DNA of 64,000 bases from an uncultured Bacilli bacterium (GTDB taxonomy: Bacteria; Bacillota_I; Bacilli_A; ML615J-28; CAG-313): contig CAKPAZ010000003.1 in assembly GCA_934133195.1 (NCBI GenBank), positions 10,682 to 74,681 on the forward strand. The letters run 5' to 3'. Position 1 is the stretch's first letter. Each line of letters opens with the position of its first letter. Made by a program: the position numbers and the translations under genes. The notes below the pieces were generated by a model that did no database searches, was not told the origin of the DNA, and was given only the letters and a program-made list of their open reading frames with translations. Of this stretch, positions 6,386 through 48,034 are shown in pieces.

Positions 6386-6429
6386 AGACTTTTTCAAAAC
6401 CTTAGGCTTTTGGGAAAGTCTTTTTTTTA
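6386..6429 (+). terminator. Rho-independent terminator
   Basis: Outer stem AGACTTT (6386-6392) / AAAGTCT (6415-6421) with an inner imperfect stem, followed by a T8 run. Confidence 0.7.
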
Positions 6430-6437
6430 AAAAAAGT

Positions 6438-6452
6438 ATGAAAACGCTTGCT
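6438..6452. promoter_or_regulatory. cre-like (CcpA operator-like) motif overlapping the -35 of the 6513 gene
   Basis: ATGAAAACGCTTGCT matches every defined position of WTGNAANCGNWNNCW. Confidence 0.4.
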
Positions 6453-6476
6453 AAAAAATGTTAAAAGTGCTATAAT
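6448..6476 (+). promoter_or_regulatory. Sigma-A type promoter of the 6513 gene
   Basis: TTGCTA (6448-6453), 17-nt spacer, TATAAT (6471-6476) with an upstream TG; RBS AAAGGAGAAAAATATG. Confidence 0.65.
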
Positions 6477-6512
6477 AAGGTGTAAAAATAATGAAAGGAA
6501 AAGGAGAAAAAT

Positions 6513-17331: not shown

Positions 17332-17569
17332 GCGTGATAACAATTAAACAAACTTAAAATTTTTTAACAAACGTGTGAAAAAGCTAAAAGATTAAAATTT
17401 TAGATAACTAAAGAATTATACTTACCTTACTAAATTAGCAATGTAGATATAATCCTAATAGTCATCTAGGATTTTAGTCTTTTTTTATATATTTTTAAAA
17501 ATATTTAATTTTTTAAACTTCGTTTTAGGTTTGAATATTATAATATTGGTGTGTTTAGGAGGAATCAAT

Positions 17570-20197
17570 ATGAAAAAGCATAAATTTCTATTAATTTTAT
17601 CAATTCTATTAATTATGATTACAATCACAGGATGTGGTACAACATCTAATGAATGTAGTAATGGTCATACCTGGGATGATGGTGTAGTCCAAAAAGAAGC
17701 TACATGTGAAGATACAGGTACAATCCTTTATACATGTACAGTATGTGAAAAAACAAAGACGGAATCAATCAAAGCTCTTGGTCATACTCCAAGTTCTACT
17801 TGGACTGTCTCTACAAATACTCATTATCACATTTGTACAAGATGTGGAGCAACCTTAGATGAAGAAAATCATTCCTATGATGAAACAACTAAAACTTGTA
17901 TTTGTGGTAAGAGTGAAGAAGAAGATACTGGTTATACAGTAACATTTAGTATAGATGATAACGTTCAAATCATCATTTATGAAACTCAAGATACATCTGG
18001 AGAAGGTACTATATATAATAAGGAAGAAACCTTTTTCGCAAGACTTTCAACTGGTGAAGTTTCATCATCAGGTGATGCTCAAGTAAACTTTAAAGTTGTA
18101 GTACCTGATGGTTATATAATTGATACCATTACAATTAGTCCAAGTGCATACAAAAATATTAAAACCATTGATACTTTAACTTATCGTGTAACTAAAGTTA
18201 CTGGTAATATCGAAATAGCTGTAACAATTAAAGAACAACAAACAGTTGAAGAAACTTACTTTATTACGGAAATTAGTGAAACTTCTGCGACACTAACTCA
18301 CAATGATGAAGTTTTAACCTTTAGTTTCCCACTTGGTACAACCTATCAAGTAAATCAAGAAACTGGTGCTTTAACTTTAGCTTTTAGTGAAGTATCAACT
18401 GAGGAATTAACTTTCAGCTTTAGTGGTAACTTACTTGGATCATTAATCTTTAATGTTAATGAAGAAAATGACATTGTAATTGAACTTTCAAATGTAAGTA
18501 TTATAAGTGAAACAAATACTCCAATTTATATCTTAAGTGCTGGTAATTGTGATATTTCTGCGAAAAAAGGAACTGTTAATGAAATTACTGACAATCGTGA
18601 AGCAGTTGAAGATATGAAAGGAGCAATCTATGCAACATGTGATTTAAAGCTAAAAGGAACTGGAACTCTAAATGTTTATTCTAAAAATAATAACGGAATT
18701 CAAACTAAAGATGATTTAGAAATTCAAAAATTAACCCTTTTAGTAAATGTTTGTGACAATGCTTTAAAAGGAAATGATAGTGTTACAATTACATCTGGTA
18801 ACTTAACTTTGATTGCGAGAGTTGGTGATGGTATTAAAACATCTAATACTGACCTTTCAAGTAAAGGAAAACAACGTGGTACAATTACTATTAATGGCGG
18901 AACCATTGACATCTTTGCTGCATGTGATGGTATTGATGCTTCCTTTGATGTAATCATCAACGGTGGTACAATTAACATTTATACTGATAAGTATTCAGAA
19001 TACTCAGAAGAAGTAATTAAAGTTACCGAAAGTATTTACTACATTCGTTCTAATACAACAAGTTATAAATATTCAATTTATTATTACAATACCGAAACTG
19101 ATGGTGTATGGGTAAACGCTGAAACATCATATACTACAAAATCAAATGGTCGTGAAAACTATTATTACTATAAAATAAATAAACTTTCTGAATATAGTTA
19201 TCTAAAGGTTTATGTGTATAACGCAAATCAAGAAAGTGGTCAAAATACTAATTACTATAAAGTATCATCACAAATGACTCTAAATAATAACTATGATACA
19301 ATCGCTTTTGGTACAACTGGCCGTCCTGGAAGTACTAGTCAATCATTTAGTTGGACAACATACTCAACAACTACTCCTGGTGGTGGTATGGGACCAAATG
19401 ATCAAGGTAATACTGATAAAGGTGATTACTCAACTAAAGGTATTAAAGCTGATAATGAAATTACTATCAATAATGGCACTATCACCATCAAATCATATGA
19501 TGATGCTATGCATACTAACAATGATAATACTTTAGAAAGTGGAGTAACTCCTACTGGTAATATTACAATTGTTGATGGTACAATTACCTTATATTCAAAT
19601 GATGATGCTATTCATGCTGATGGCACCGCAATAATTAATGGTGGCACCATTATCATTACTAATTCCTATGAAGGTATTGAAGGAGGAAGTGTTGAAATTA
19701 ATGGTGGTAACATCAGTGTAATCTCAAGTGATGATGGAGTTAATGGTACTAACACAACCGGTACAAGTATTAAAGTTACTGGTGGTACGCTATATGTTTA
19801 TGCGGGAGGCGATGGCCTTGATTCAAACAGCCAAGACTCATATGGTGGTATCTTATTTAGTGGTGGTAAAGCCGTAATCATATCTTATGGACGTAGTGAT
19901 TCATCCATAGATACTGAACGTGGTTACACTTATACAGGGGGAACAATCATTGGTATTGGTCTTTCTGGTGGTATGAGCAGTGAATCAACAAACTGTAAAA
20001 ACTTCTCAAGTGTTGGTACTTCTAAAACTATGAGTTTAACAAAAGATAACTTTCTTAATGTTGAAGATGTTGTTACAATAAAAATTCCTTTCTCGACAAA
20101 TTCTCTAATAGTAGTTCTTGGATCTACTAATTCCTCAATCTCAACAACAACATCTTCAACTTCACTACTTGATAGTAATGGGGTATGCTGGAAATAA
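17570..20197 (+). CDS. Lipoprotein with N-terminal Cys/His-rich modules and a Cthe_2159-like (carbohydrate-binding beta-helix) domain
   Basis: RBS TAGGAGGAATCAATATG and lipobox ITITGCG. Repeated units include NGG(T)I.I....DGI(D/H)A, NGGTINIYTD, DDAIHADGTAIINGG and GGDGLDSN, typical of PF14262-type proteins. The track start at 17531 (TTG) is unlikely. Confidence 0.75.
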   Translation: MKKHKFLLILSILLIMITITGCGTTSNECSNGHTWDDGVVQKEATCEDTGTILYTCTVCEKTKTESIKALGHTPSSTWTVSTNTHYHICTRCGATLDEENHSYDETTKTCICGKSEEEDTGYTVTFSIDDNVQIIIYETQDTSGEGTIYNKEETFFARLSTGEVSSSGDAQVNFKVVVPDGYIIDTITISPSAYKNIKTIDTLTYRVTKVTGNIEIAVTIKEQQTVEETYFITEISETSATLTHNDEVLTFSFPLGTTYQVNQETGALTLAFSEVSTEELTFSFSGNLLGSLIFNVNEENDIVIELSNVSIISETNTPIYILSAGNCDISAKKGTVNEITDNREAVEDMKGAIYATCDLKLKGTGTLNVYSKNNNGIQTKDDLEIQKLTLLVNVCDNALKGNDSVTITSGNLTLIARVGDGIKTSNTDLSSKGKQRGTITINGGTIDIFAACDGIDASFDVIINGGTINIYTDKYSEYSEEVIKVTESIYYIRSNTTSYKYSIYYYNTETDGVWVNAETSYTTKSNGRENYYYYKINKLSEYSYLKVYVYNANQESGQNTNYYKVSSQMTLNNNYDTIAFGTTGRPGSTSQSFSWTTYSTTTPGGGMGPNDQGNTDKGDYSTKGIKADNEITINNGTITIKSYDDAMHTNNDNTLESGVTPTGNITIVDGTITLYSNDDAIHADGTAIINGGTIIITNSYEGIEGGSVEINGGNISVISSDDGVNGTNTTGTSIKVTGGTLYVYAGGDGLDSNSQDSYGGILFSGGKAVIISYGRSDSSIDTERGYTYTGGTIIGIGLSGGMSSESTNCKNFSSVGTSKTMSLTKDNFLNVEDVVTIKIPFSTNSLIVVLGSTNSSISTTTSSTSLLDSNGVCWK

Positions 20198-32993: not shown

Positions 32994-33554
32994 ATGATTA
33001 TTGAAAAAGTAGTTGATAAAAATGAAATGATAAGAGACTTAAAATTATTTAAGAAATATTATCTTTTACCATTTAAAACTCAATCATTGATATTTCTATT
33101 TCTTATTATTTATGGTGCCATTAATTTTCTTTTTGCATATTTATTTTCAATTGAATCAAAGTTTGTAGATATAAGTATGATTATTGTTGCACTAGCAGTA
33201 CTATATTATTTAATTATAGCGGCTCGTACTTTGATAAAAACCAATAAAGATATTAAGATGCTAATAAATGATAGAACGAAAATCTACGATACTAGAGATT
33301 ATATTATTAGAAGATTTACCTTTACTGCTGATGAATTAATTATTGAAAAAGATGATGGAACTAATCAAGTAACTGATAAGTTTTTATTAGATGATCTTTA
33401 TATAGTATGGATTGATAAAAAAAGAAAAGCTTTTATCATGCAATTTAAAACTGGTAAAAATAAAAGGATACTAGCAGTTTATTCAGATAAAATAGATGAA
33501 TTAGAAACATATTTCATAAATAATAATATAAGGTATCATATAGTAAAAAGATAA
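32994..33554 (+). CDS. YcxB-like membrane protein (paralogue 2)
   Basis: 186-aa ORF with RBS AAAGGAGAAAATATTTTATG. N- and C-terminal thirds are near-identical to the upstream gene (MIIEKVVDKNEMIRD..., ...YFINNNIRYHIVK). Confidence 0.6.
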   Translation: MIIEKVVDKNEMIRDLKLFKKYYLLPFKTQSLIFLFLIIYGAINFLFAYLFSIESKFVDISMIIVALAVLYYLIIAARTLIKTNKDIKMLINDRTKIYDTRDYIIRRFTFTADELIIEKDDGTNQVTDKFLLDDLYIVWIDKKRKAFIMQFKTGKNKRILAVYSDKIDELETYFINNNIRYHIVKR

Positions 33555-33583: not shown

Positions 33584-33634
33584 AAAAAGCTCTTAAGTTA
33601 ACAAGTTCATGACTTGAAAACTTAAGGCTTTTTT
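33584..33634 (+). terminator. Terminator hairpin, copy A of a 51-bp direct repeat
   Basis: AAAAAGCTCTTAAGTTAACAAGTTCATGACTTGAAAACTTAAGGCTTTTTT. Outer stem CTTAAGTT/AACTTAAG, inner stem CAAGT/ACTTG, flanked by an A-run and a T-run. Confidence 0.8.
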
Positions 33635-33672
33635 ATATTGTAAAATTATATTGTAAAATTATATTGATAAAA
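33633..33672. repeat. 13-bp tandem direct repeat x3 upstream of the giant gene
   Basis: TTATATTGTAAAA (33633-33645), TTATATTGTAAAA (33646-33658), TTATATTGATAAAA (33659-33672). Confidence 0.85.
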
Positions 33673-33684
33673 ATTTATCAATAT
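33661..33684. promoter_or_regulatory. Perfect 11-2-11 palindrome (operator-like) abutting the -35 of the giant gene promoter
   Basis: ATATTGATAAA AA TTTATCAATAT; the arms are exact reverse complements. Confidence 0.45.
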
Positions 33685-33687
33685 AGT

Positions 33688-33716
33688 TTTACAGAATAAT
33701 TAATTTGTGGTAAAAT
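33688..33716 (+). promoter_or_regulatory. Candidate promoter of the 33760 gene
   Basis: TTTACA (33688-33693), 17-nt spacer, TGgTAAAAT extended -10 (33708-33716). RBS GGAGGAAATATG lies at 33749-33762. Confidence 0.5.
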
Positions 33717-33759
33717 ATAATGGTAGAGAGATAGAGGGATATAAATTAGAGGAGGAAAT

Positions 33760-36700
33760 ATGAAGAATAAAATTTTAAGAATCTTTACAGCTGTTTTATT
33801 GTTAACTACTATATTGGTTGTTACCCTTTCATCTTACAAGAAAAAAGATGATTATGAAGATAATAAACCAACAATACAAGAAGATTTAAATAAGTATGCA
33901 GGTAGCTATGACATACATAAAATTGTATTACAAAATACAAATGAAGTAACGGCGAAAAAATTAGCTGAAAGATTTAATGCTAAATTGAGAATTACTTCAG
34001 ATGGAAGTTATGCTACACTAACTCTTCCTGATGATATAACAATAAACGATATTGTTAAAAGTAATAAAAATAGAGATATTTTAAGCTTAATTGCGCCTGA
34101 CTATAAGGCTACTCTATCAGAACTAACTGAAGAAAGAACAACTAACTTTCCTACTGTTTCTGTAGAGGATGAATATTATGATTTACAAACATACTTAAAA
34201 TATTTAAATTTACAAGATGTTTGGAAAAATTATAAGGGCAGTGGAAAAACTATTGCTGTTATAGATACAGGTATAGATACAGACCACCCTGAATTTGCAG
34301 GCCGAATAAGCGAATATTCATATAATGCTACATTAGATAAGATAGTTAAAGACTGTGTCAATGAAGATGGCAGTTATGACTGGAGCATTATAGAAGATGA
34401 ACAAGGACATGGTACCGCTGTATCAGGTGTAATAGCTGCATCAATGAACAATGAAATTGGTATTGCTGGTATTGCTCCGGAAGCTAAAATTCTAACTATT
34501 AAAGCTGAATGTGATAAAAATGGTAATTTCAAGAACACATCAGACTTAGTATTTGGTTTATATTATGCAATTGAACAAAATGTTGATGTTGTAAACATGA
34601 GTTTTGGAAGTCCAGTCAATGTATTTTCAACTCCTGCTAAACTTGCTGTTGATAGTGACATAGTTTGTATTGCCGCTGCAGGAAATGAATCAACTGCAAA
34701 ACTTACATATCCAGCAGCAGATGAAAACGTCATAGGTGTTGGTGCTTTAGCTGATAATTCTTGGGAACTTGCATCTTACTCTAACTATGGTGATAATACT
34801 GATGTTGTTGCTCCAGGAACTGTTTATACAACATATCTAAATGGCACTTACAAAACAATGTCAGGAACAAGTTTTTCAGCTCCTATTGTTTCATCTTTAA
34901 TTGCTTTATTCTATAATCATTACATGACAACTGATTATGCAAAAGAAGTATTATATGCCGCAAGTTATGATTTAGAAAGTAAGGGAAAAGACTTTTACTT
35001 TGGATATGGTGCTGTTGATGCAAGTGCTTTAATTTTAGAAGAAAAAGGAACAGTCACATTTAACTATTTAACTGATGAAATTAATCCAACAACACAAATA
35101 TTTATCAAAAATCATCCATTACAAAATATTCCTCAACCGGAAAGATTATATTCAGTTTTTGATGGTTGGTATTATGATATTAATTGTAAAGATGAAATTG
35201 ACCTATATGTTGATGCATGGACAAGCGATTTAACTCTATATTGTAGTTGGGGTAATGAAGATGATGTTCTTCCTTATACATATACTACTTTAGATGATAA
35301 TTCTATTGAAATAACATCATACATTGGTAAGAGAAAATATATCACAATTCCTGAATATATTGATAACAAAAAAGTAACAAGCATTGGAAGATCAGCTTTC
35401 GCAAACAATACTAAATTAGTAAACGTAAATCTACCTAGTGGTTTAAAATCAATTAAAGATTACGCTTTTGATGGATGTATTAATATCAAGAATTTTGAAA
35501 TTCCATCAAGTGTTATAAGTATTGGAATTAATGCTTTTAGAAATAATATAAGTCTTTATAATATTAATTTCTTAAGTGATAGTAAACTTGAAGTAATTGA
35601 TGAATATGCATTTATAAATTGCTCATCTCTTACTAGATTTGATATTCCTAAAAATGTAAAATATAATGAAGAAAATAATTACTTCACAGGTAGTGCCTTT
35701 GTTGGATGTACTAATCTAAGACAAGTTAACGCAAGTAGAGATAGTAAATATTTAACATCAATTAATGGTGTTTTATATAACAAAGCATCTTCAACAATCA
35801 TTTTATACCCTGCTGGTTTATCAAATGAAACATATGATTTACCAACATCAGTAACTAAACTTGGTAAGTACTCATTCGCATTTTCTAATATTGATACAAT
35901 TGATTTAAAGAATGTAACAGCGATTAATTCAAATGCATTTGAATCATCTCGAATAAGAAAAATAACCTTAAGTGATAAAGTAACAACCCTTGGAAGTTTT
36001 GCTTTTATAAACTCACAAATTAACGATATTACTTTAGGACATGGCCTAAAGGCTTTAGAATCTGGTACTTTCAGACAATGTAATAACTTATATTCAATAA
36101 CTATACCAAATTCAATAGTTTATATTAGAGGTCCTATTGGAGCCTTTTTCGAAAGTTCACTTACAGACATTACTTTTGAAGAAGAATCTAAACTTTTATT
36201 AATCGATGATTATACATTTGCTAATTCTAATTTACATAAAATTGAAATTCCATCTTCAGTTGTAAAAATTGGTATGTCAGCTTTTTATGGATGTTCAAAT
36301 CTAACCGAAGTAATAATTAATAATGATTCAGCTTTGTCAGTAATTGATGAAAATGCATTTAGTTATACATCAATAAAAACTATCAACTTAACTAGTCATC
36401 TTTATACAATAGGTGCAGGTGCATTCTTTGCGACAAAACTAGAAGAAGTAACAATACCTAGTAGTGTTAATCAAATATATGGAAGTTCATTTGCTGGAAA
36501 CATATACTTAAAAAACATCTTTGTATCACCAGATAACAAGATGTTAACATCCATTGATGGAGTGGTTTACACTAAAGATTATTCAACCCTTTTCGCATAT
36601 CCAGCTGGTAAAGATTTATCATCATATACCATTGATGGAAGAGTAACTGAAATAGGTGAATATGCTTTCTATGGTGCATGCAATTTAACTAGTATTGATT

Positions 36701-39700
36701 TTCCTGAAAATCTAATAATTATAAATGATTATGCTTTTTCTTCATTATCGAATATTTCCTATTATAATTTACCTTCTAGTTTAACTTCAATTGGTGAATA
36801 TGCATTCAGTGACAATGAAAAGTTACAAGGAACTACAATCCCAGGCAATGTTGAAACTATAGGAAGATATGCCTTTAAAGGAAATTATAATTGTATAAAT
36901 ATTAATATTACAACACCATCTAAACTTGATAGATTACCATATGGAGTTTTCGCGTATACAGGAATCTATAGTTTTAGAATTCCTTCAAGTATTTCAAGTA
37001 TTTCTCAAGATGTCTTTTTAGGATGTAATAATCTAGATTCCATCACCTTTGAAGAAAATAGTAAATTACAAGCAATTAGTGCTTACACATTCTCTGGATG
37101 TGATCAGTTAAGAGTAATTACTTTTGAAAATGGTTCTAACCTAGAAACCATTGAAGCCCATGCTTTTGAAGGCTTGAAAAACTTAACAACTATTGATTTT
37201 GGTGATGCTAGTGTAAAAACAATTAGTAACTATGCTTTTAGATTTTGTACTTCATTACAAAATATTACGCTTCCTGAAACATTAACATTTATTGGACGTT
37301 ATGCCTTTTATGGTTGTAAATCCTTAACTAAATTAACTATCCCTTCATCAGTTGATTATATCGGAAGATATGCATTTAATCTTGCTTCATCATTAGATAT
37401 TTACTTTGAAAGTGATACCTTACCTTCTAATATCCAAGAATACTGGGATAAAGGTATTAATAGTTATCACATAGGAGTTAAAGAAATTAAACAAGATGAA
37501 AATTTTGAATATGCTATATTAAGAAATAATACTATATCAATTATTAAATACCTTGGAAATGAAAAAACTCTTGATTTAACAAACTTATCAATTGGAACTG
37601 TTTCATCTATTGGTGGTCATGCTTTCATGAATTCAAGTGTTGAAAGTATAGTTTTACCAGAAACATTAATAGAAATTCAATATTATGCCTTCAAAAATTC
37701 ACGTATTAAAACATTAATCATTCCTGATAGCGTTATAAGAATTGGCAATAATGCCTTTGAAGCATCAAGTATTGAAACAATTACTATTAATGAAACAAGT
37801 AATTTAAAATATATCGATCAATATGCCTTTAGTTTATGTACTTCATTAAAGAGTATATATTTACCAAGTTCTTTAATTAAGCTTGGAACTGGAGCTTTTG
37901 AAAAGAGTTCACTAGAAACTGTAAACTTTGATGAAAATATTACTATAAATGAAATCCCTGAGGATTGTTTCTTAGGAACAAAATTGGTAAATGTTGTTTT
38001 ACCTAATACTGTTACATTAATTAATAACAGTGCGTTTAGAGAAGTAGAAACATTATTAAATATAACATTTGGAACATCTAAACTTTCAATTTTATCAAAT
38101 GCCTTTTATAATTCTGGCTTACAAGAAGTATATCTTCCTGAAAACATTGAATATGTTGGTGAATATAGTTTTGTAGGTTTAAAGAATTTAAAAGAATTTA
38201 AAGTAAGTGAAAATAATAAATATTATCAACAAATTGATGGTGCGTTATATACAAAAGATGGTAAAAAAATAATAGCCTACCCAGCTGGAAAAACGGGTAG
38301 CATTACGCTTCCAACGTCTATTGAAACAATTGGATTTGGAGCTTTTGAAAACTCTAGTTTAACAAACATAGAGTTTGGTGCAGAATCTAATATTTTAAAT
38401 ATTGGATATAGAGCGTTCTTTAACGCTAAAAATTTAGTAGAAATAACAATACCTGATAGTGTTATTTCCATAGATTATTATGCTTTTGCTAATTGTGATA
38501 GATTAGAAAGTGTAAATATCAGTGAAAACTCAAAATTAGCAGGAATTTATGAAGGTGCATTCTACGGATGTATTAACTTAAAATACATCACTTTACCTGA
38601 TACATTATATGTAATTAGTGATTACTGTTTCAGTGGATGCTCATCACTTACTCGTATACCTGTTAATGAAACATCTAGCTTAATTGATATAGCTAGTTAT
38701 GCCTTTGCTTACTCAGGATTAACCGAAGTAAATATTCCACTTTCAATAGTTAATCTTGGTGCATATAGTTTCAAAGGAATAAAAGCAACAACAATAGTAA
38801 TTCCTTCTGAAAATCAAGAAATTCTCAAGATTGGTATTGGTGCCTTTGAAGAATGCGAATACCTAGAAGAAATTACATTACCATTTATTGGTGGTAGCTT
38901 TGAAGATGAAACTAATTATTGGGTAGGATATGTATTTGGTGCTGGAACATATGAAGCTAACGAAGATTATCTACCTGATTTATTAAAAAAGATTACTATC
39001 GATGAAGGTATAAAAGTAGTAAAAAACAATTCGTTTTATAATATTAAAAAATTAGAAGAAATTGATCTTCCTTATAGTTTGGAATTAATAAATGCTTATG
39101 CTTTCTATCTTTGTGAAAGTAGACATCAATTTAAAAGTTCGATATCATTGTCAGGTGATTTTCAAGATTTAAATATGAATTTGGGATCAAATCTATATGG
39201 AACATTGAATATAACGTCATTTGTCACTAGCCTAACTGTAGAAAAAATACAATTAGATTGTTATGATTTAACAAGTGTATCATTACCTGCAACAAAGAGA
39301 TTTCCATATTTTAAAAATTGTAACCGATTACAAGAAATTATTATTCCCGAAGGAACTGAAATTATAGCAGATGACACATGCAATAGTAGCATAATAAAAG
39401 AAATTACATTACCTAGTTCTTTAAAATATATATATGATGAAGCTTTTGGAGGTTCGATATATATTTATAGAATTATCAATAATAGTTCATTAGACATTAA
39501 ACTTGGAGATAGATCATGTGGATGGGCAACTACCTACGCAAATGAATTAATTGATAAAGATGGTAACAAAATAGTATCAAATGATGACTATAGTATAATT
39601 GATTATAATAACTTTAGATTTACATATAAAGATAATAAATATACTTTAGTAGACTATTTAGGATCTGAAGTAGATGTAGTATTACCTGAATTTATATATG

Positions 39701-42700
39701 GAACTAGTTACGAAATAAATTTACAATACAATAGAAAACTAGAAAAAGTTGAAATTCCTAATACTTTTACAACTATTAATGAATACGCATTTTATGATTG
39801 TTCTTCGTTAAAAACCGTTATTATTCCAGATTCAATAATCAAAATAGCATATTCTGCGTTTAGTAGCTGTGAATTATTAACAAATGTAAAACTTCCTAAT
39901 TTTCTTGAAACTATTGAATCTTTTTCTTTTTCTGGTTGCGAATCTATAACATCAATTGTAATACCAAATTCTGTTAGTCGTATAGGTAGATATGCCTTTA
40001 GAGATACATCAATTAAAGAAATAACAATTCCAAATTCAGTAAAAGAATTAGATGGTTTTCAGGATTGTAAATCGCTAGAAACAGTTAATTTACCTGATAC
40101 AGATATTATAATTTATGATGAGGCATTTAATAATTGTGAAAATTTGAAATATATTAAACTTGGCGCTAGAACTAAAATTAATGGAAGTATTATCAATAGT
40201 AATGATTGTATACTTGATTTTAGTAATAGTGAAATTTACAATTATGATAATGGAATAACATATGATGAAACATTCAAAAAAATTATATATGTCGATAAAA
40301 GAATTAAAGGTGAAGTAACTATTAAAGATGGAGTTGAATCGATTAGTAATGCTTTTTCTTATTGTAAAGATGTGACATCAATAATATTACCGGATTCAAT
40401 CACATCAATTTCAGAAAGTGCTTTTTCATATTGTACATCATTAACAACAGTTAAAATGTCAAGTAAAGTCACTAATATAGGTTCATACGCCTTTGAAAAT
40501 TGTACATCACTTGTTGATATTGAATTGCCAAATACAATTGAGACGATTCATAGTTACGCCTTTAAAGATTGTACATCATTAATAACTTTCAAAATTCCAA
40601 ATTTAGTTACAAGTATAGAAGATTCTACTTTTTATGGATGTACATCATTAATTAATATTGAAATTTCCGAAACAGTTACGAAAATAGGGCAATCTGCATT
40701 TAATCAGTGTTCTTCATTACAAAGTATCGCAATACCAACATCAGTTACAAGTATAAATGTTTTGGCATTTGCTGGTTGCAAATCATTAGTAGATATTGAA
40801 ATTCCTGATTCAGTTACAGAATTAGGATGGGGAATCTTTTTAGGATGTAATTCACTAATCTCAGTAAAATTACCTAATTCAATGGATAAAATTGGAGAAT
40901 TCTTTTTTGAAGAATGTATATCTTTAGAAACAGTGGATATTCCAGCAGCAATCACAAGCATAGAACGTTTTGCATTTAATTGTTGTATATCATTAAAAAA
41001 TATTATTTTACCAGATACAGTTAAGAGTATTGAAGATAGTGCATTTACTGATTGTATTTCGTTAAAAAATATTAAAATGTCTACAAATATTACTAATATA
41101 GGAACTTTTGCATTTAATGGCTGTGTTTCATTAGTAGACATACAAATACCAGCTGGTATTACCAGAATAGAAAAATCAAGTTTTGATTCTTGTAGTTCAT
41201 TAAAATCAATTACTTTGCCTGATACAATTAATGAGATTAGAGATTCAGCATTTAAAAATTGTACATCATTATCAAGTATAACAATTTCAAATAATATAAA
41301 TTATATTTCAAGTAATGCATTTTATGGATGTCAATTATTATTCACAGTTATCAATAATTCTGACTTAAAAGTTGGTTTCCAAAATTCAAGTGATGGTATT
41401 ATTTTTGAATATGCTAAGAAAATAATTGAAAAGGATGGAACTATAAGATATTATAACGATGAAGAACTTGGTGATTTAAAAGATACAGAGTATATTGTTA
41501 AAAATAATTTTAAATTTTCATATAATGGACTATTCTACATTTTGATAGAATATGAAGGAAATGAAACAAGTATAGTATTTCCTGAAAATATAAATGGTGA
41601 GAATTACTTCATAAATTTTTCTTCTGATTCAGTTAAAGAAATTAAATTTCCAGACAATTTAATTGAATTAAAAAGTTATTATGTGATTAACGAACAAAGG
41701 TATTCGTTTACTAATAAAATTTATGGTAATAAACTCGAAACAATTGATTTTAATAATTTAACGAAAATAACACATAATTTATTAGAAGATAATAGAAGTT
41801 TGGAAAATGTTATATGTAATAATGTTATTCGTATTGAGTATCAAGCTTTTGAATGGTGTCTTAATTTAAAAAGTGTTAAATTTTTAGAAACGCTTGAGGA
41901 AATAGAATCTAGAGCATTTTATAATTGTACATCGTTAACAACTATAACTATACCAGAATCAGTATCATATTTAGGTGGTGATTCATTTGCCCATTGTTCA
42001 AATTTAATTGATGTAATTCTTCCTAAAAATATTAAATATTTTGCATCTAGTACATTTGATGACACTCCATATATGGAAAATACTAAAGTTATAGATGGCG
42101 TTAAGCATTTAGGTAATTATATTATTGATATTGATAAAAATAAAACACAATTTTCATATGATCCGGGTTATCAAATTACAAATAATGCCTTGAATGGTTG
42201 TACTAGAATAAAAGATTTTATATTAAATAAAACTGATAGTCAATTTATGGAAAGTGGGTTAAGATATTTAACAAATTTAGAAAAATTATATATTAATATA
42301 AATTTAGAAAATCCTATTAGAAACTATCTATATTCTTTCCCTGAAACTTTTAAAACTATTATTATTTCAAGTAGCGTTACAGAAGTAGTAGATAATCAAT
42401 TTAATGGATTTAATGGTGTAATTTACGTTGATCAATATAAAGACAATGTAATGTGGGATTATGAACATCCAAATTGGAATGGAAATAATAAAGTTTATTA
42501 TAAAGGTGAATGGATTAAAGCTTCATTTTATAATAATGATGATACAGAAATTACAACAGATTTCTATTTAGTTAATCAAATAATTAGACAGCCAATAATG
42601 AAAGATTATGTTAAAGATGGAATCAATTACAAATTTATTGGTTGGGATACAGATGGTGATAATAAAGTTAATTCTTTGCCAGCAAATTCTAAAACTAATG

Positions 42701-45700
42701 TAACTGCTAAAGCAATATATGAAGAACAAATAAAGAACTACACTGTCACATTTATGGATAAAGATGGAGTAACAATTCTTGAACAATTAAGTTTACCTTA
42801 TGGTTCTACATTTACTTTAATAACACCAGCTGAAAAACAAGGTTATACTTTTGTTGGTTGGAGAGATTATCCAAAAGATTTAGTTGTAACTGAAGATTTA
42901 ATAATATATTCTGTATGGACTCATAATGGAAATCATGAATATACAATTGATGAAGTAATTGATCCAACATGTACAGAGGCTGGATATACAAAACATATTT
43001 GTTCAATATGTAATGAATATTACATATCTGATTATGTAGATAAACTTGGTCATAACTTTACTCAAGAGGACATAGTAGATCCAACATGTACAGAAGATGG
43101 TTATACAAAACATACATGTTCAGTATGTGACTATACATATTCTGATAATTATGTTAATAAACTTGGTCATACATTTGGTGATTACATAATTGATGAAGAT
43201 CCTACATGTGAAAACTCAGGTTTAAAACATAAAGAATGTCATACATGTCAACATAAAGAAGAAGAAACAATTGCCCCATTAGGTCATAATTATGAAGAAA
43301 CTGATATAGTTGAATCAACATGTACCCATGGTGGCTCAATAACATATACATGTACAAGATGTGAAGATGTTATAACATCATACACAGATTTAAAAGATCA
43401 TGAATATGTTAAAAAATATGTATCATTAACATGGTTAGAAAGACTATTAAAATTCTTAATTAAGATATTTTATGGAATAGAAAATGATAATGCATACTAT
43501 TTTGAATGTGTTAATTGTAAACACATAATGACAGCGAATGAAAATCAAGCAAATTCATCTATTCAAGGCACTTGTTCACATGAAACCTGTGAATGGGTAG
43601 TAGTATTTACAAGTTGTGATGATAATGGATTAAAGACATATAAATGTACAAATTGTGATGAAGTACTTGAAATTGAATTATTAGATCCAATAGGTCATGA
43701 TTTAGTACATCATGAAAAGTTAGATGCTACTTGTGAAGAAGCAGGACATGAAGCATATGATACATGTACAAGATGTGATTATACAACATTCAAAGAAATC
43801 CAAGCAGCAGGTCATACTTCAAGTGATTGGATTATTGACAAAAAATCTAACTGTACTGAAGATGGTTCAAAACATAAAGAATGTACAGTTTGTCATAAAG
43901 TACTTAAAACAGAAGTTATAGATAAACTAGGCCATAATCTTGTTCATCATGAAAAACTAAATCCTACTTGTGAAGAAGCAGGACATGAAGCATATGATAC
44001 ATGTACAAGATGTGACTACACAACATTTAAAGAGATTCCTTCAACAGGTCATACAACGAGTGATTGGATCATTGATAAAGAATCTAACTGTACAGAAGAT
44101 GGAACTAAACATAAAGAATGTACAGTATGTCATAAAGTTTTAGAAACAGAAGTTATAGAAAAACTTGGACACGATTTAGTACATCACGAAAAGTTAGATC
44201 CTACTTGTGAAGAAGTAGGCCATGAAGCATATGATACATGTACAAGATGTGACTACACAACATTCAAAGAAATCCCATCCACAGGTCATACTTCAAGTGA
44301 TTGGATTATTGACAAAGAATCAAATTGTACAGAAGATGGCTCAAAACATAAAGAATGTACAGTTTGTCATAAGATTTTAGAAACAGAAGTTATAGAAAAA
44401 CTAGGTCATAATCTTGTTCATCATGAAAAGTTAGATCCCACTTGTGAAGAAGCAGGACATGAAGCATATGACACATGTACAAGATGTGACTACACAACCT
44501 TCAAAGAAATCCCAGCAACCGGACATAGATCAAGTGATTGGATTATTGACAAAGAATCAAATTGTACAGAAGATGGCTCAAAACATAAAGAATGTACAGT
44601 CTGTCATAAAGTACTTGAAACAGAAACAATAGATATGTTAGGCCATGATCTTGTTCACCATGAAAAGTTAGATTCTACTTGTGAAGAAGTTGGTCATGAA
44701 GAGTATGATACTTGTACAAGATGTGATTATACAACCTTCAAAGAAATCCCAGCAACTGGTCACACATCAAGTGAATGGATTATTGATAAAGAATCAAATT
44801 GTACAGAAGATGGCTCAAAACATAAAGAATGTACAGTATGTCATAAAGTTTTAGAGACAGAAGTTATTGATAAACTTGGACACGATTTAGTACACCATGA
44901 AAAGTTAGATCCAACATGTGAAGAGAATGGCCATGAAGCATATGATACTTGTACAAGATGTGATTATACAACCTTCAAAGAAATTCCTTCAACTGGTCAT
45001 ACTTCAAGTGATTGGATTATAGATCAAAAATCAAATTGTACTGAAAATGGTTCAAAACACAAAGAATGTACAGTATGTCATAAAGTACTTGAAACAGAAA
45101 TCATAAGTAAATTAGGACATGATTTAGTACATCATGAAAAACAAGATCCTACTTGTGAAGAAGCAGGCCATGAAGCATATGATACATGTACAAGATGTGA
45201 TTATACAACCTTCAAAGAAATATCTGCAACTGGTCATACATCAAGTGAATGGATTATTGACAAAGAATCTAACTGTACAGAAGATGGATCAAAACACAAA
45301 GAATGTACAGTATGTCATAAAGTACTTGAAACAGAAGTTATTGATAAACTTGGTCATAATCTTGTTCATCATGAAAAGTTAGATCCTACTTGTGAAGAAG
45401 CAGGCCATGAAGCATATGATACTTGTACAAGATGTGATTATACAACCTTCAAAGAAATCCCAGCAACCGGACATACTTCAAGTGATTGGATTATCGATCA
45501 AGATTCTAACTGTACAGAAACTGGTTCAAAACATAAAGAATGTACAGTATGTCATAAAGCACTTGAAACAGAAGTTATAGAAAAACTAGGACATGATTTA
45601 GTACATCATGAAAAACTAGATCCAACTTGTGAAGAAGTAGGCCATGAAGCATACGATACATGTACAAGATGTGATTATACAACTTTCATAGAAATTCCTT

Positions 45701-46164
45701 CAACAGGTCATACAACAAGTGAATGGATAGTGGATGTTGAGGCTACTTGTACTGAAACTGGTTCAAAACACAAAGAATGTACAGTTTGTCATAAAGTTTT
45801 AGAGACAGAAATTCTTGAAAAACTAGGACATAATCTTGTTCATCATGAAAAGTTAGATGCTACTTGTGAAGAAGTAGGACATGAAGCATATGACACATGT
45901 ACAAGATGTGATTATACAACATTTAAAGAAATCCCATCCACAGGACATACAACAAGTGAATGGATAGTAGATGTTGAGCCTACTCATAAAAAGGAAGGTT
46001 CAAAGCATAAAGAATGTACAACCTGTCATAAAGTTTTAGAGACTGAAACAATCAGTAAGATTTCTAGTAAATGCTGTAACATTAGTTCAAATTCAGTAGT
46101 AATATTTACTCTTATATCAATTTGTAGTTTAATGACTTTTGTTATAAGACGTAAAAAATATTAG
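33760..46164 (+). CDS. Giant (4134 aa) surface protein: signal/anchor, S8 subtilase, Flg_new, four BspA-type LRR cassettes, 2 Flg_new, Cys/His-rich repeat array, C-terminal TM anchor
   Basis: Single uninterrupted 12.4-kb ORF with a strong RBS. The S8 triad motifs are AVIDTGID, HGTAVSG and SGTSFSAP. Dozens of 22-24-aa units follow the pattern IP.SV..IG..AF..C..L. Ten 79-aa repeats follow, and the terminal VVIFTLISICSLMTFVIRRKKY is hydrophobic with a basic end. Confidence 0.9.
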   Translation: MKNKILRIFTAVLLLTTILVVTLSSYKKKDDYEDNKPTIQEDLNKYAGSYDIHKIVLQNTNEVTAKKLAERFNAKLRITSDGSYATLTLPDDITINDIVKSNKNRDILSLIAPDYKATLSELTEERTTNFPTVSVEDEYYDLQTYLKYLNLQDVWKNYKGSGKTIAVIDTGIDTDHPEFAGRISEYSYNATLDKIVKDCVNEDGSYDWSIIEDEQGHGTAVSGVIAASMNNEIGIAGIAPEAKILTIKAECDKNGNFKNTSDLVFGLYYAIEQNVDVVNMSFGSPVNVFSTPAKLAVDSDIVCIAAAGNESTAKLTYPAADENVIGVGALADNSWELASYSNYGDNTDVVAPGTVYTTYLNGTYKTMSGTSFSAPIVSSLIALFYNHYMTTDYAKEVLYAASYDLESKGKDFYFGYGAVDASALILEEKGTVTFNYLTDEINPTTQIFIKNHPLQNIPQPERLYSVFDGWYYDINCKDEIDLYVDAWTSDLTLYCSWGNEDDVLPYTYTTLDDNSIEITSYIGKRKYITIPEYIDNKKVTSIGRSAFANNTKLVNVNLPSGLKSIKDYAFDGCINIKNFEIPSSVISIGINAFRNNISLYNINFLSDSKLEVIDEYAFINCSSLTRFDIPKNVKYNEENNYFTGSAFVGCTNLRQVNASRDSKYLTSINGVLYNKASSTIILYPAGLSNETYDLPTSVTKLGKYSFAFSNIDTIDLKNVTAINSNAFESSRIRKITLSDKVTTLGSFAFINSQINDITLGHGLKALESGTFRQCNNLYSITIPNSIVYIRGPIGAFFESSLTDITFEEESKLLLIDDYTFANSNLHKIEIPSSVVKIGMSAFYGCSNLTEVIINNDSALSVIDENAFSYTSIKTINLTSHLYTIGAGAFFATKLEEVTIPSSVNQIYGSSFAGNIYLKNIFVSPDNKMLTSIDGVVYTKDYSTLFAYPAGKDLSSYTIDGRVTEIGEYAFYGACNLTSIDFPENLIIINDYAFSSLSNISYYNLPSSLTSIGEYAFSDNEKLQGTTIPGNVETIGRYAFKGNYNCININITTPSKLDRLPYGVFAYTGIYSFRIPSSISSISQDVFLGCNNLDSITFEENSKLQAISAYTFSGCDQLRVITFENGSNLETIEAHAFEGLKNLTTIDFGDASVKTISNYAFRFCTSLQNITLPETLTFIGRYAFYGCKSLTKLTIPSSVDYIGRYAFNLASSLDIYFESDTLPSNIQEYWDKGINSYHIGVKEIKQDENFEYAILRNNTISIIKYLGNEKTLDLTNLSIGTVSSIGGHAFMNSSVESIVLPETLIEIQYYAFKNSRIKTLIIPDSVIRIGNNAFEASSIETITINETSNLKYIDQYAFSLCTSLKSIYLPSSLIKLGTGAFEKSSLETVNFDENITINEIPEDCFLGTKLVNVVLPNTVTLINNSAFREVETLLNITFGTSKLSILSNAFYNSGLQEVYLPENIEYVGEYSFVGLKNLKEFKVSENNKYYQQIDGALYTKDGKKIIAYPAGKTGSITLPTSIETIGFGAFENSSLTNIEFGAESNILNIGYRAFFNAKNLVEITIPDSVISIDYYAFANCDRLESVNISENSKLAGIYEGAFYGCINLKYITLPDTLYVISDYCFSGCSSLTRIPVNETSSLIDIASYAFAYSGLTEVNIPLSIVNLGAYSFKGIKATTIVIPSENQEILKIGIGAFEECEYLEEITLPFIGGSFEDETNYWVGYVFGAGTYEANEDYLPDLLKKITIDEGIKVVKNNSFYNIKKLEEIDLPYSLELINAYAFYLCESRHQFKSSISLSGDFQDLNMNLGSNLYGTLNITSFVTSLTVEKIQLDCYDLTSVSLPATKRFPYFKNCNRLQEIIIPEGTEIIADDTCNSSIIKEITLPSSLKYIYDEAFGGSIYIYRIINNSSLDIKLGDRSCGWATTYANELIDKDGNKIVSNDDYSIIDYNNFRFTYKDNKYTLVDYLGSEVDVVLPEFIYGTSYEINLQYNRKLEKVEIPNTFTTINEYAFYDCSSLKTVIIPDSIIKIAYSAFSSCELLTNVKLPNFLETIESFSFSGCESITSIVIPNSVSRIGRYAFRDTSIKEITIPNSVKELDGFQDCKSLETVNLPDTDIIIYDEAFNNCENLKYIKLGARTKINGSIINSNDCILDFSNSEIYNYDNGITYDETFKKIIYVDKRIKGEVTIKDGVESISNAFSYCKDVTSIILPDSITSISESAFSYCTSLTTVKMSSKVTNIGSYAFENCTSLVDIELPNTIETIHSYAFKDCTSLITFKIPNLVTSIEDSTFYGCTSLINIEISETVTKIGQSAFNQCSSLQSIAIPTSVTSINVLAFAGCKSLVDIEIPDSVTELGWGIFLGCNSLISVKLPNSMDKIGEFFFEECISLETVDIPAAITSIERFAFNCCISLKNIILPDTVKSIEDSAFTDCISLKNIKMSTNITNIGTFAFNGCVSLVDIQIPAGITRIEKSSFDSCSSLKSITLPDTINEIRDSAFKNCTSLSSITISNNINYISSNAFYGCQLLFTVINNSDLKVGFQNSSDGIIFEYAKKIIEKDGTIRYYNDEELGDLKDTEYIVKNNFKFSYNGLFYILIEYEGNETSIVFPENINGENYFINFSSDSVKEIKFPDNLIELKSYYVINEQRYSFTNKIYGNKLETIDFNNLTKITHNLLEDNRSLENVICNNVIRIEYQAFEWCLNLKSVKFLETLEEIESRAFYNCTSLTTITIPESVSYLGGDSFAHCSNLIDVILPKNIKYFASSTFDDTPYMENTKVIDGVKHLGNYIIDIDKNKTQFSYDPGYQITNNALNGCTRIKDFILNKTDSQFMESGLRYLTNLEKLYININLENPIRNYLYSFPETFKTIIISSSVTEVVDNQFNGFNGVIYVDQYKDNVMWDYEHPNWNGNNKVYYKGEWIKASFYNNDDTEITTDFYLVNQIIRQPIMKDYVKDGINYKFIGWDTDGDNKVNSLPANSKTNVTAKAIYEEQIKNYTVTFMDKDGVTILEQLSLPYGSTFTLITPAEKQGYTFVGWRDYPKDLVVTEDLIIYSVWTHNGNHEYTIDEVIDPTCTEAGYTKHICSICNEYYISDYVDKLGHNFTQEDIVDPTCTEDGYTKHTCSVCDYTYSDNYVNKLGHTFGDYIIDEDPTCENSGLKHKECHTCQHKEEETIAPLGHNYEETDIVESTCTHGGSITYTCTRCEDVITSYTDLKDHEYVKKYVSLTWLERLLKFLIKIFYGIENDNAYYFECVNCKHIMTANENQANSSIQGTCSHETCEWVVVFTSCDDNGLKTYKCTNCDEVLEIELLDPIGHDLVHHEKLDATCEEAGHEAYDTCTRCDYTTFKEIQAAGHTSSDWIIDKKSNCTEDGSKHKECTVCHKVLKTEVIDKLGHNLVHHEKLNPTCEEAGHEAYDTCTRCDYTTFKEIPSTGHTTSDWIIDKESNCTEDGTKHKECTVCHKVLETEVIEKLGHDLVHHEKLDPTCEEVGHEAYDTCTRCDYTTFKEIPSTGHTSSDWIIDKESNCTEDGSKHKECTVCHKILETEVIEKLGHNLVHHEKLDPTCEEAGHEAYDTCTRCDYTTFKEIPATGHRSSDWIIDKESNCTEDGSKHKECTVCHKVLETETIDMLGHDLVHHEKLDSTCEEVGHEEYDTCTRCDYTTFKEIPATGHTSSEWIIDKESNCTEDGSKHKECTVCHKVLETEVIDKLGHDLVHHEKLDPTCEENGHEAYDTCTRCDYTTFKEIPSTGHTSSDWIIDQKSNCTENGSKHKECTVCHKVLETEIISKLGHDLVHHEKQDPTCEEAGHEAYDTCTRCDYTTFKEISATGHTSSEWIIDKESNCTEDGSKHKECTVCHKVLETEVIDKLGHNLVHHEKLDPTCEEAGHEAYDTCTRCDYTTFKEIPATGHTSSDWIIDQDSNCTETGSKHKECTVCHKALETEVIEKLGHDLVHHEKLDPTCEEVGHEAYDTCTRCDYTTFIEIPSTGHTTSEWIVDVEATCTETGSKHKECTVCHKVLETEILEKLGHNLVHHEKLDATCEEVGHEAYDTCTRCDYTTFKEIPSTGHTTSEWIVDVEPTHKKEGSKHKECTTCHKVLETETISKISSKCCNISSNSVVIFTLISICSLMTFVIRRKKY
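34200..35040 (+). other. Peptidase S8 (subtilisin-like) catalytic domain of the giant protein
   Basis: Asp codon 34264-34266, His 34408-34410 and Ser 34870-34872, in D-H-S order. Preceded by an I9-propeptide-like segment. Confidence 0.8.
40387..41335 (+). repeat. Highly regular 69-bp (23-aa) LRR tandem array, about 14 units
   Basis: Units such as LPDSITSISESAFSYCTSLTTVKM and SSKVTNIGSYAFENCTSLVDIEL. The DNA motif TGTACATCATTA recurs. Confidence 0.8.
43690..46059 (+). repeat. Ten tandem 237-bp (79-aa) Cys/His-rich coding repeats
   Basis: GGTCAT at 43693 and GGCCAT at 43930 give an offset of 237, and 10 x 237 = 2370 nt ends exactly at 46059. The unit is LGH(D/N)LVHHEKLDPTCEE.GHEAYDTCTRCDYTTFKEIP.TGHTSS.WIIDKESNCTEDGSKHKECTVCHKVLETEVI.K. 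Confidence 0.95.
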
Positions 46165-46170
46165 AATATA

Positions 46171-46223
46171 AAAAAAGCCCTTAAGTTAACAAGTTCATGA
46201 CTTGAAAACTTAAGGGTTTTTTT
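46171..46223. terminator. Bidirectional terminator, copy B of the 51-bp direct repeat
   Basis: AAAAAGCCCTTAAGTTAACAAGTTCATGACTTGAAAACTTAAGGGTTTTTTT is identical to copy A at 49 of 51 aligned positions. It serves the giant gene (+) and nrdG (-). Confidence 0.85.
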
Positions 46224-48009: not shown

Positions 48010-48034
48010 AAGAAAAGAGCCCTTTGAAGGCTCT
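48010..48034 (-). terminator. Terminator of the 48033..48593 gene
   Basis: On the minus strand AGAGCC-TTCAAAG-GGCTCT followed by TTTTC; the stop codon lies inside the stem. Confidence 0.65.

Follow-up and report, generated by a model that had tools for sequence, protein, structure and literature searches.

The window analysed here is a 64,000-nucleotide stretch of DNA from an uncultured Bacilli bacterium of the GTDB lineage CAG-313 (contig CAKPAZ010000003.1, positions 10,682 to 74,681 of the forward strand). At its centre of interest is a single open reading frame (ORF) of 4134 codons. We hold with moderate confidence that this ORF encodes a giant surface protein in which an active serine protease of family S8 and leucine-rich repeat (LRR) binding domains are held off the cell on a membrane-anchored rod of about 25 small modules, each with one histidine and three cysteines as characteristic residues (His/Cys3). 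Each of these parts, as well as the principle of the stalk, is already known, and the new aspect is the combination of S8 protease, LRRs, and modules in one chain. A description made previously without database searches (the sequence-only reading) had listed the order of domains along the ORF, and this order is borne out by Pfam, motif scans, and reading of the sequence. That description holds up well with the exception of its claim of uniqueness, which fails, and what the protein does for the cell is something that we infer from its parts. A Pfam scan of the whole protein lists S8, LRR families, Flg_new, and nothing else. The features of the gene, all on the plus strand, are as follows, with amino acid (aa) positions in brackets.

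33688..33716: promoter-like TTTACA-17-TAAAAT with a TG extension (consensus match only: 10/12, with TG ahead of the second hexamer)
33750-33755: ribosome-binding site AGGAGG, with the ATG four bases further on
33760..46164: single complete ORF from ATG to stop, 4134 codons (4134 aa)
33772..33831 (aa ~5-24): N-terminal hydrophobic segment, free of cysteine, probably a signal-anchor (sequence; model helix)
33901..34107 (aa ~48-116): propeptide-like beta-alpha-beta-beta-alpha-beta domain (AlphaFold2 secondary structure, pLDDT (predicted local distance difference test) values, Foldseek)
34177..35034 (aa ~140-425): subtilase (S8A) catalytic domain (PF00082, matches in the Protein Data Bank (PDB), Foldseek)
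35044..35259 (aa ~429-500): Flg_new (Listeria-Bacteroides repeat, PF09479) behind the protease, beta-rich in the model and present in relatives
35272..42159 (aa ~505-2800): BspA-type LRR region (Pfam LRR_5, 17 stretches)
42517..42927 (aa ~2920-3056): C-terminal Flg_new region, with one Pfam-scored copy and a degenerate upstream copy recognized by eye
42931..43401 (aa 3058-3214): four divergent His/Cys3 modules (motif scan)
43402..43692 (aa 3215-3311): insert with an amphipathic hydrophobic stretch, LTWLERLLKFLIKIFYGI, then a fifth divergent module (motif scan)
43693..46062 (aa 3312-4101): ten 79-aa units, equal to 20 modules, the final module without its first cysteine (Tandem Repeats Finder, TRF)
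46093..46161: C-terminal transmembrane (TM) helix (aa 4112-4129) and basic stub RRKKY, preceded by KCCNISSNS (sequence)

Integrity of the gene

The reading frame is free of stops across all 4134 codons, and the ORF is real and intact. The longest exact repeat within the gene is 71 nucleotides and no 77-mer recurs, and therefore a collapse of repeats during assembly is unlikely. When applied to the array of ten 79-aa units, TRF reports a period of 237 nucleotides, 10.1 copies, 85% matches, and no indels. Codon differences between the units are synonymous in 819 cases and non-synonymous in 513. The lack of indels, the lack of a repeated 77-mer, and the synonymous excess argue that the array is old, under selection, and correctly assembled.

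An alternative explanation is that the gene is an assembly artefact or a pseudogene, wherein chimeric or collapsed repeats have been fused into one frame. The source indeed appears to be a short-read metagenome assembly, the counterpart gene in another genome (L010, described below) is disrupted, and an independent Logan assembly of the identical strain (L001) stops 22 nucleotides past the stop codon of the giant gene. However, a break at this location is expected, because it is where short reads meet a repeat-rich gene. Moreover, the artefact would have to account for the uninterrupted frame, for units that are just ~84% identical in DNA and accumulate more synonymous than non-synonymous changes, and for four independent full-length homologues that are colinear from head to tail. 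We consider it exceedingly improbable. Neither an assembly error nor a frameshift, either of which would speak against the single ORF read originally, was found.

A subtilase head behind a putative signal-anchor

The N-terminal hydrophobic segment is part of one long helix (aa 2-34) in the AlphaFold2 model. There is no cysteine in the first 60 residues of the protein and thus no lipobox, which agrees with the N-terminal signal or anchor without a lipobox that had been recognized from the sequence. No signal-peptidase site of the Ala-x-Ala type was seen by eye in the window protein or in the relatives inspected, and with its modelled helix the N-terminus looks like an uncleaved signal-anchor.

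Following this segment, aa 50-115 are modelled as a beta-alpha-beta-beta-alpha-beta fold, which is connected to the catalytic domain by a low-confidence linker (aa 117-135). Foldseek aligns the head over 402-429 columns to the unprocessed forms of subtilisin E (pro-subtilisin E, 3whi) and Tk-subtilisin (pro-Tk-subtilisin, 2z2z). Because the catalytic domain accounts for only ~275 residues, the match reaches past it. The I9-like propeptide proposed in the sequence-only reading is therefore consistent with the modelled fold and with the pro-subtilisin alignments, but it is not matched by the Pfam I9 model.

The catalytic domain matches Peptidase_S8 (PF00082) at aa 160-417 with an E-value of 1.4e-49 and a score of 169.4 bits (cutoff 21.8). 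The triad residues D169, H217, and S371 and the oxyanion residue N309 align to the subtilisin motifs and are invariant across an alignment with 30 relatives, in keeping with the complete D-H-S triad noted originally. Among PDB sequences, the head comes closest to intracellular subtilisins, thermitase, and the classical subtilisins (E down to 9e-36). With an alignment of the relatives as input, AlphaFold2 gave a confident model of aa 1-520 (pLDDT 86.3) that presents, in order, the helix, the propeptide-like unit, the linker, a subtilisin fold, and a beta domain that corresponds to Flg_new. Comparison of this model with thermitase (1thm) by Foldseek gives an E-value of 2.3e-24, a template modelling score of 0.89 on the target, and a root-mean-square deviation of 2.2 Å. 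By profile, triad order, and fold, the protein is a subtilase of family S8 (subfamily S8A). No specialised subtilase family was matched, and the S8 domain is of the generic subtilisin/thermitase type.

Flg_new and leucine-rich repeat regions

The first Flg_new repeat, at about aa 431-494, scores 28 bits against a cutoff of 27 in a piecewise Pfam scan. It is followed by the long BspA-type LRR region, whose earlier identification is supported by an LRR_5 score of 1231 bits in 17 stretches. This region includes roughly 80-95 LRR units of about 23 aa with a spacing of 22-25 aa. The units are arranged in four blocks that start near aa 505, 1245, 1995, and 2620, with cap-like segments between them, and each block scores on its own in Pfam. 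The equivalog model for the adhesin HupY/LrrG (NF047961) gives 448.7 bits, which is under its cutoff of 1250. We therefore rejected an identity with this adhesin, as the likeness comes from the shared LRRs only. Two further Flg_new repeats had been placed downstream of the LRRs. One of these passes Pfam (aa 2994-3036), and the other is visible by eye only.

A module array related to a known stalk

Modules occupy aa 3058-4101, between the functional head and the TM helix. Each module is 39-40 aa long and conforms to the pattern G-H-x10-12-C-x3-G-x5-7-C-x2-C. There are 24 regular modules and one degenerate module, which is the last one and is without the first cysteine. Each of the ten 79-aa units is a pair of modules, A and B, with protein identities of 91% between A modules, 81% between B modules, and 29% between A and B. 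The sequence-only reading had counted ten near-identical repeats. The number stands, but the units are not near-identical, sharing 73-90% of their nucleotides (about 84%) over 237 positions and 72-94% of their amino acids. Likewise, the four degenerate modules that had been placed ahead of the units are present, but an insert plus a fifth module (together ~97 aa) also precede the units. The amphipathic stretch LTWLERLLKFLIKIFYGI (43402-43560, aa 3215-3270) breaks the module array at this point, and like stretches are found in or after the arrays of the module proteins P0150, P0199, and P0212.

When 23 four-module stretches taken from a diverse set of proteins are aligned, the histidine, the three cysteines, and one glycine are invariant in every module. 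AlphaFold2 predicts an all-beta structure for four modules with a pLDDT of 96.7. There is no Pfam or NCBIfam model for the module, and at E <= 10 only chance-level matches to zinc fingers and ribbons are obtained. A profile made from the 23 module sets, however, matches PDB chain 9qa6_A, labelled 'IgA protease', with an E-value of 2.9e-14. The matched stretches are residues 854-885, 919-1003, and 1100-1144 of this chain, which is the immunoglobulin A (IgA) protease of Thomasclavelia ramosa. The second and third are inside the published domains ZBD1 (879-1008) and ZBD2 (1101-1171), and the first is mostly just upstream of ZBD1 (PMC12237041). Judged by this profile match, the modules are homologous to the stalk domains of the T. 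ramosa enzyme. The His/Cys3 ligand set of the window modules is the counterpart of site 8 in PMC12237041, and each module probably holds a structural zinc through these ligands.

The homologous domains of the T. ramosa enzyme have been examined in two reports from 2025, where ZBD/CTD2-CTD4, termed a "metal-associated periscope domain", are described as zinc-linked rods (PMC12415215, PMC12237041). For domains CTD2/CTD4, small-angle X-ray scattering data for CTD2 in isolation agree with a rod in full extension, and 'an uncharacterized periscope domain fold' is proposed by the authors, as is a role for the C-terminal domains in jointly projecting the protease from the cell (PMC12415215). The stalk fold is therefore already described and provides a direct published precedent, and the homology backs the original proposal that the cysteine-repeat rod serves as a stalk. 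This is the sole description that we found for the ~39-aa His/Cys3 module. A search of the literature for S8-LRR fusions, or for the module as a 'cysteine-rich repeat' or 'zinc ribbon', returned nothing relevant.

The module is widespread. In a search of 1.84 billion proteins, 69,856 cluster representatives match its profile at E <= 0.001, and 16,774 still do so at E <= 1e-30. Many of the matching proteins are 2000-7500 aa long and carry dozens of modules. In a word-indexed search, the module co-occurs with dockerin, cohesin, SLH, Big_2, fn3, CAP, and LRR_5 domains. It is among the more abundant uncatalogued extracellular domains, with ~70,000 cluster representatives that neither Pfam nor NCBIfam covers by a model and with an unsolved array structure. 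The 20 well-conserved copies in the window protein offer a good entry point for defining the family and for tests of zinc dependence.

The module is also present in a lipoprotein encoded elsewhere in the window.

17531..20197, plus strand: 888-aa ORF for a neighbouring lipoprotein, with His/Cys3 modules and then a Cthe_2159 domain

In this protein, one regular and one variant module come straight after the lipobox cysteine and are followed by the Cthe_2159 domain, which is of a carbohydrate-binding type. The location directly behind the lipobox cysteine suggests that the module is a general anchor-proximal spacer in the source organism. In other module proteins that are anchored at the C-terminus, the last module is about 100-140 residues from the end.

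The C-terminal anchor

The protein ends with an 18-residue hydrophobic stretch and the sequence RRKKY, consistent with the membrane anchor assigned to this segment before any searches were made. The same type of tail, a TM helix with basic residues behind it, is present in four full-length homologues (P0320, P0310, P0362, and P0415) and in the disrupted L010 copy, all of which are described below. No LPXTG or xPxTG motif occurs anywhere in the 4134-aa protein, and thus the statement that there is no LPXTG or wall-binding module is correct with regard to the motifs. With these motifs and the lipobox absent, the protein was rejected both as a lipoprotein and as a sortase substrate. The tail has no match to an NCBIfam C-terminal sorting-domain model (Pfam/NCBIfam at E <= 10). 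Module proteins in general end in one of two ways, with an xPxTG sortase signal or with a plain TM helix and a basic tail. Anchoring by a C-terminal TM segment is also found in 23 of the 26 BspA-like proteins of Ca. Mycoplasma girerdii (PMC4206474).

A C-N-x-S/T/L motif is located a few residues ahead of the C-terminal TM helix (46063-46161) and was seen by eye in P0121 as well. It is also present in 4 of 40 module proteins whose tails were scored by script as TM-plus-basic, and the named cases in addition to P0121 are P0139, P0230, P0293, and P0344. This sequence pattern may be a signal for sorting or modification that is specific to the lineage, or it may have arisen by chance.

Homologues with the same architecture

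Full-length homologues were found by applying a hidden Markov model of the head to the 150 module-richest representatives. In two shorter searches, no listed protein exceeded about 1.75 times the length of the query, and because of this ceiling these searches could not reveal full-length relatives.

P0320: 4678 aa, 34 motif-matching modules
P0310: 4743 aa, 29 motif-matching modules
P0362: 4288 aa, 25 motif-matching modules
P0415: 3712 aa, 36 motif-matching modules

These four proteins have in common an N-terminal hydrophobic segment, an S8 head, Flg_new, LRRs, modules, and a TM helix with a basic tail, in that order. The number of motif-matching modules is 25-36 in these distant homologues compared to 24 in the window protein. 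The search for the same domain order that was recommended as a check thus yielded four colinear homologues of 3712-4743 aa, and no name for S8-LRR-module relatives was present in any source examined. The suggestion that the combination stands alone is contradicted by at least five other genes that have it (four full-length and one disrupted). The architecture is therefore conserved, uncharacterised, and assembled from known parts, and the giant gene belongs to a small, unstudied, strain-variable family.

Similar genes occur in distantly related bacteria. P0320 is colinear with the window protein over aa 29-4104 at 38.6% identity, and its gene (L091 6001-20037) resides in a metagenome-assembled genome (MAG) with a GC content of 47.5%, directly downstream of a phage-type integrase gene (L091 4789-5715). 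The TrxB protein of this MAG is 33% identical to the TrxB encoded in the window. Because the P0320 match, which extends over ~4100 aa, exceeds the TrxB identity, the sequence comparison hints at horizontal transfer of the giant gene.

A fifth copy, of about 4150 aa, is found in a 25%-GC MAG (L010; GCA_964507405.1) and has a very similar tail (…NKCNSLSS…MRKKRY). This copy is broken by a TAA at position 2102, a frameshifted stretch of ~220 nucleotides (6395-6611), and a scaffold gap of 100 Ns. Either it is decaying or the assembly contains errors. An alternative genetic code was rejected as an explanation, since the in-frame stops include TAA, TAG, and TGA in addition to the frameshifted stretch and are not TGA-only.

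Dozens of metagenomic proteins are 45-62% identical to the window protein over the first 520 aa and carry S8, Flg_new, and LRR_5, although most are cut by the ends of contigs. In L008 and L009, the heads are joined to Big_2-rich continuations that are split by a stop or a frameshift. These proteins end without a TM helix, and hence the head does not always need a TM anchor. The L013 gene, from an Izemoplasmatales MAG, stays open for at least 3831 aa, includes a long Flg_new array, and runs off the end of the contig. A genome scan with a single head sequence gave no match. An alignment-based scan, which is not a census, detected at least three close heads among species representatives.

Comparison with known surface proteins

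The closest precedent for the stalk, the T. ramosa IgA protease (MEROPS M64; PDB 9qa6; PMC12237041, PMC12415215), is also a surface protease of a human-gut member of the Bacillota. It resembles the window protein in having an N-terminal export signal, a catalytic head, and His/Cys modules that closely precede a TM helix and a charged tail at the C-terminus. However, its catalytic domain is an M64 metzincin rather than an S8 protease, it has about five subdomains instead of about 25 modules, and its predicted sites are mostly His2Cys2 rather than His/Cys3. It also carries the sortase motif SPQTG, which is absent from the window protein, and it lacks LRRs, is 1234 aa rather than 4134 aa in length, and has an established substrate in IgA1/IgA2.

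The overall plan of an N-terminal functional domain, a rod of tandem domains, and C-terminal attachment is shared with Periscope Proteins and fibrillar adhesins such as SasG, Aap, Rib, and Sgo_0707 (PMC8201768, PMC9704523, PMC9210967), and the alternating A and B modules of the window protein are reminiscent of the E-G5 pattern in SasG. The window protein has the tandem similar domains of this class in the form of its ten 79-aa units, but in place of the LPXTG wall anchor it has a TM helix. Variation in repeat number from strain to strain is the defining behaviour of Periscope Proteins. The repeats of the window protein are less alike in DNA (73-90%) than those of this class. In addition, these proteins have a single lectin- or adhesin-type head rather than an enzyme together with LRRs.

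Lactocepin PrtP and the streptococcal C5a peptidases ScpA and ScpB also begin with a pre-pro subtilase in a long surface protein that has a C-terminal anchor. ScpA and ScpB function both as protease and as adhesin. Enzymes of the PrtP/ScpA type are characterised by a PA domain inserted into the S8 domain, by fn3-type or A/B domains, and by anchoring through LPXTG. They have neither LRRs nor probable zinc-binding modules, both of which are part of the window protein. An identity as a cell-envelope proteinase of this type was rejected, as no PA or fn3-type domain was detected by Pfam and there is no LPXTG motif. A Peptidase_S8-fn3_5 surface architecture is listed in PMC7136413.

Surface-exposed LRR_5 solenoids are the feature shared with BspA-type proteins, which include BspA of T. 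forsythia, HupY/LrrG of group B Streptococcus (GBS), and proteins of Ca. M. girerdii and Trichomonas (PMC4206474). None of those described has a protease or a module stalk, and in M. girerdii they are 136-1481 aa long (PMC4206474).

An accessory cassette between terminator-like hairpins

The giant gene is an accessory cassette, which some strains have and others lack. The following features define its boundaries.

33584..33634, no strand assigned: left copy of a 51-nucleotide direct repeat, a hairpin with A and T runs that fits a two-way terminator (-20.1 kcal/mol, z -5.5)
33633..33672, plus strand: 13-nucleotide x 3 tandem repeat TTATATTGTAAAA (TRF), exactly at the left boundary of the cassette and upstream of the promoter-like site
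46172..46222, no strand assigned: right copy of the 51-nucleotide direct repeat, a hairpin with A and T runs (-26 kcal/mol, z -8.0)

In six contigs from related strains (L002-L007, including Hadza gut samples), the flanks are 92-97% identical to those of the window and the region 33636..46164 is absent. The gene for NrdG is joined directly to a gene for a 183/186-aa protein in these contigs, with one copy of the hairpin between the flanks. The two copies in the window are identical at 49/51 nucleotides. The single copy at the empty sites indicates that the cassette was gained or lost by recombination at the duplicated terminator-like hairpin. A simple terminator scan missed both hairpins, whereas folding revealed them clearly. 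The tandem repeat TTATATTGTAAAA is absent from the empty-site strains. No other strain carrying the gene was found for a comparison of repeat counts, and the remaining strain contigs are without the whole gene. A phage or defence element was rejected, because there are no such neighbours and the flanks carry housekeeping genes.

Proposed mechanism and alternative functions

The features described above can be combined into a model for the display of the protein. The N-terminal hydrophobic segment would direct the chain to the Sec pathway and stay in the membrane as a signal-anchor, and export would include the entire ectodomain. Transfer would then come to a stop at the C-terminal helix, with RRKKY remaining in the cytoplasm, such that the precursor would be anchored at both ends. 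Classical subtilisins fold on their propeptide and subsequently cut it off. Similarly, the subtilase of the window protein would fold on its putative propeptide and remove it, which would free the N-terminal end and leave the mature chain hanging from the C-terminal helix alone. Because the N-terminus looks like an uncleaved signal-anchor, the protease would reach the distal tip only after this cut. The placement of the protease at the tip, as proposed in the sequence-only reading, is in accord with the domain order but presumes this removal of the propeptide.

Adjacent to the membrane, about 25 all-beta modules with one zinc each would form a stiff rod. Its length may be about 90 nm (25 modules x about 3.7 nm), as scaled from the ~110 Å model of the three-subdomain ZBD1 of the T. 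ramosa IgA protease (PMC12237041). The target bound by the four LRR solenoids would most likely be a protein or glycoprotein on the surface of host or microbial cells, and the S8 protease at the far end would cut the bound target or one nearby. An adhesin role of the LRRs is what we infer from their sequence family, and IgA or mucins would be attractive targets only by analogy with the T. ramosa enzyme. A more ambitious version of this model would view the gene as a horizontally mobile 'tethered protease-adhesin' cassette of gut Bacilli and Clostridia that captures and cuts host mucosal proteins (e.g. secretory IgA, mucins) ~100 nm from the membrane, with a length-tunable zinc-dependent stalk and with C-N-x-S/T/L as a new sorting or lipidation signal. 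We regard this version in its entirety as very doubtful.

Three other functions deserve consideration. The protein might be a nutritional cell-envelope proteinase, comparable to PrtP, of an amino-acid-dependent bacterium, in which the LRRs capture dietary or host proteins for degradation near the cell without any role in adhesion or immune evasion. The generic character of the S8 domain, with no match to a specialised family, and the overall plan, in which a pre-pro S8 head is followed by a long spacer and then an anchor at the C-terminus, are both as expected for such an enzyme. However, the lack of the gene in the six related-strain contigs speaks against nutrition as a core role, the LRRs, at about 2300 aa, go far beyond the apparent need for substrate capture, and the PA and fn3-type domains were missing from the Pfam scan. 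On balance, we find this function possible but rather unlikely. Alternatively, the protein could mediate cell-to-cell attachment or antagonism towards other microbes or gut protists, with the LRRs binding the partner and the protease remodelling its surface. BspA of T. forsythia is cited in PMC4206474 as co-aggregating with Fusobacterium in addition to its attachment to the host, and giant lipoproteins with peptidoglycan amidase domains in the window suggest action on the walls of other cells. No toxin, immunity, or secretion-system gene is present beside the ORF, though, and nothing separates microbial from host targets, which leaves this function unlikely.

The anchor might instead be a transient intermediate in export, with the chain cutting itself or being cut to release the head as a soluble fragment of protease and LRRs. 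In this regard, the T. ramosa IgA protease is anchored at its C-terminus, and yet its activity is mostly in the culture supernatant (PMC12237041). Furthermore, the L008 and L009 proteins, whose heads continue into Big_2 or Flg_new repeats, have no TM helix at their end. But five to six family members conserve both a rod of 25-36 modules and the TM tail beside it, which would be wasteful for a product that is shed, and we judge this explanation to be distinctly unlikely.

Several observations also weigh against the favoured reading of an active protease held off the cell on a membrane-anchored rod. The sole close counterpart in another genome, that of L010, has a stop codon and a frameshifted stretch, and the L008 and L009 heads, followed by other repeats, end without the TM helix. 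The assignment of zinc is drawn from conserved ligands and from papers whose own sites are predicted. A Foldseek search of the PDB with the four-module model gave no significant match (best E 0.015, template modelling score <= 0.2). At the N-terminus, the choice of a signal-anchor over a cleaved signal peptide was made by eye and from the model helix. Moreover, Pfam I9 has no match at E <= 10 in this region, and the case for the propeptide is consequently that of a predicted structure.

If the favoured reading is true, then there are uncultured bacteria in the human gut that use a metal-stabilised rod to present both an active protease and a very large surface for binding at a great distance from the cell. 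The gene, which is gained or lost between strains, would in that case be a candidate for determining how individual strains make contact with the host or other microbes, e.g. by cleaving mucosal proteins.

Neighbouring genes

Upstream of the cassette are the genes for NrdD, TrxB, and two paralogous membrane proteins of 183 and 186 aa, and downstream are those for NrdG, IspG, and MetK. Exact look-ups of the giant protein, of MetK, and of the 186-aa neighbour gave no match. The 90% clusters of neighbouring genes include members to which NCBI gives the name 'Bacilli bacterium'. Other features of the window are listed below.

303-3116, minus strand: large lipoprotein, 937 aa
3303-6374, plus strand: large lipoprotein, 1023 aa
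6513-14651, plus strand: large lipoprotein, 2712 aa
32387-32938 and 32994-33554: tandem paralogues of 183 and 186 aa, hydrophobic in their N-terminal regions and unmatched in Pfam, directly adjoining the cassette on its upstream side
48033-48593, minus strand: 186-aa ORF with matches to HTH_23/28/29/32 only

The copies of the 183/186-aa paralogues vary among strains, with one present in L002 and L003 and both present, as fragmented ORF calls, in L004 and L005. The HTH matches of the ORF at 48033-48593 are of the kind found at transposase N-termini, and this ORF keeps its position in strains that lack the giant gene. Unlike the giant protein, four other large proteins encoded in the window have a lipobox. 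Two of the three further large lipoproteins end with an N-acetylmuramoyl-L-alanine amidase domain that is located behind HL_N-beta, Big_2, and Flg_new repeats, and for peptidoglycan hydrolases tethered to the surface they are unusually large.

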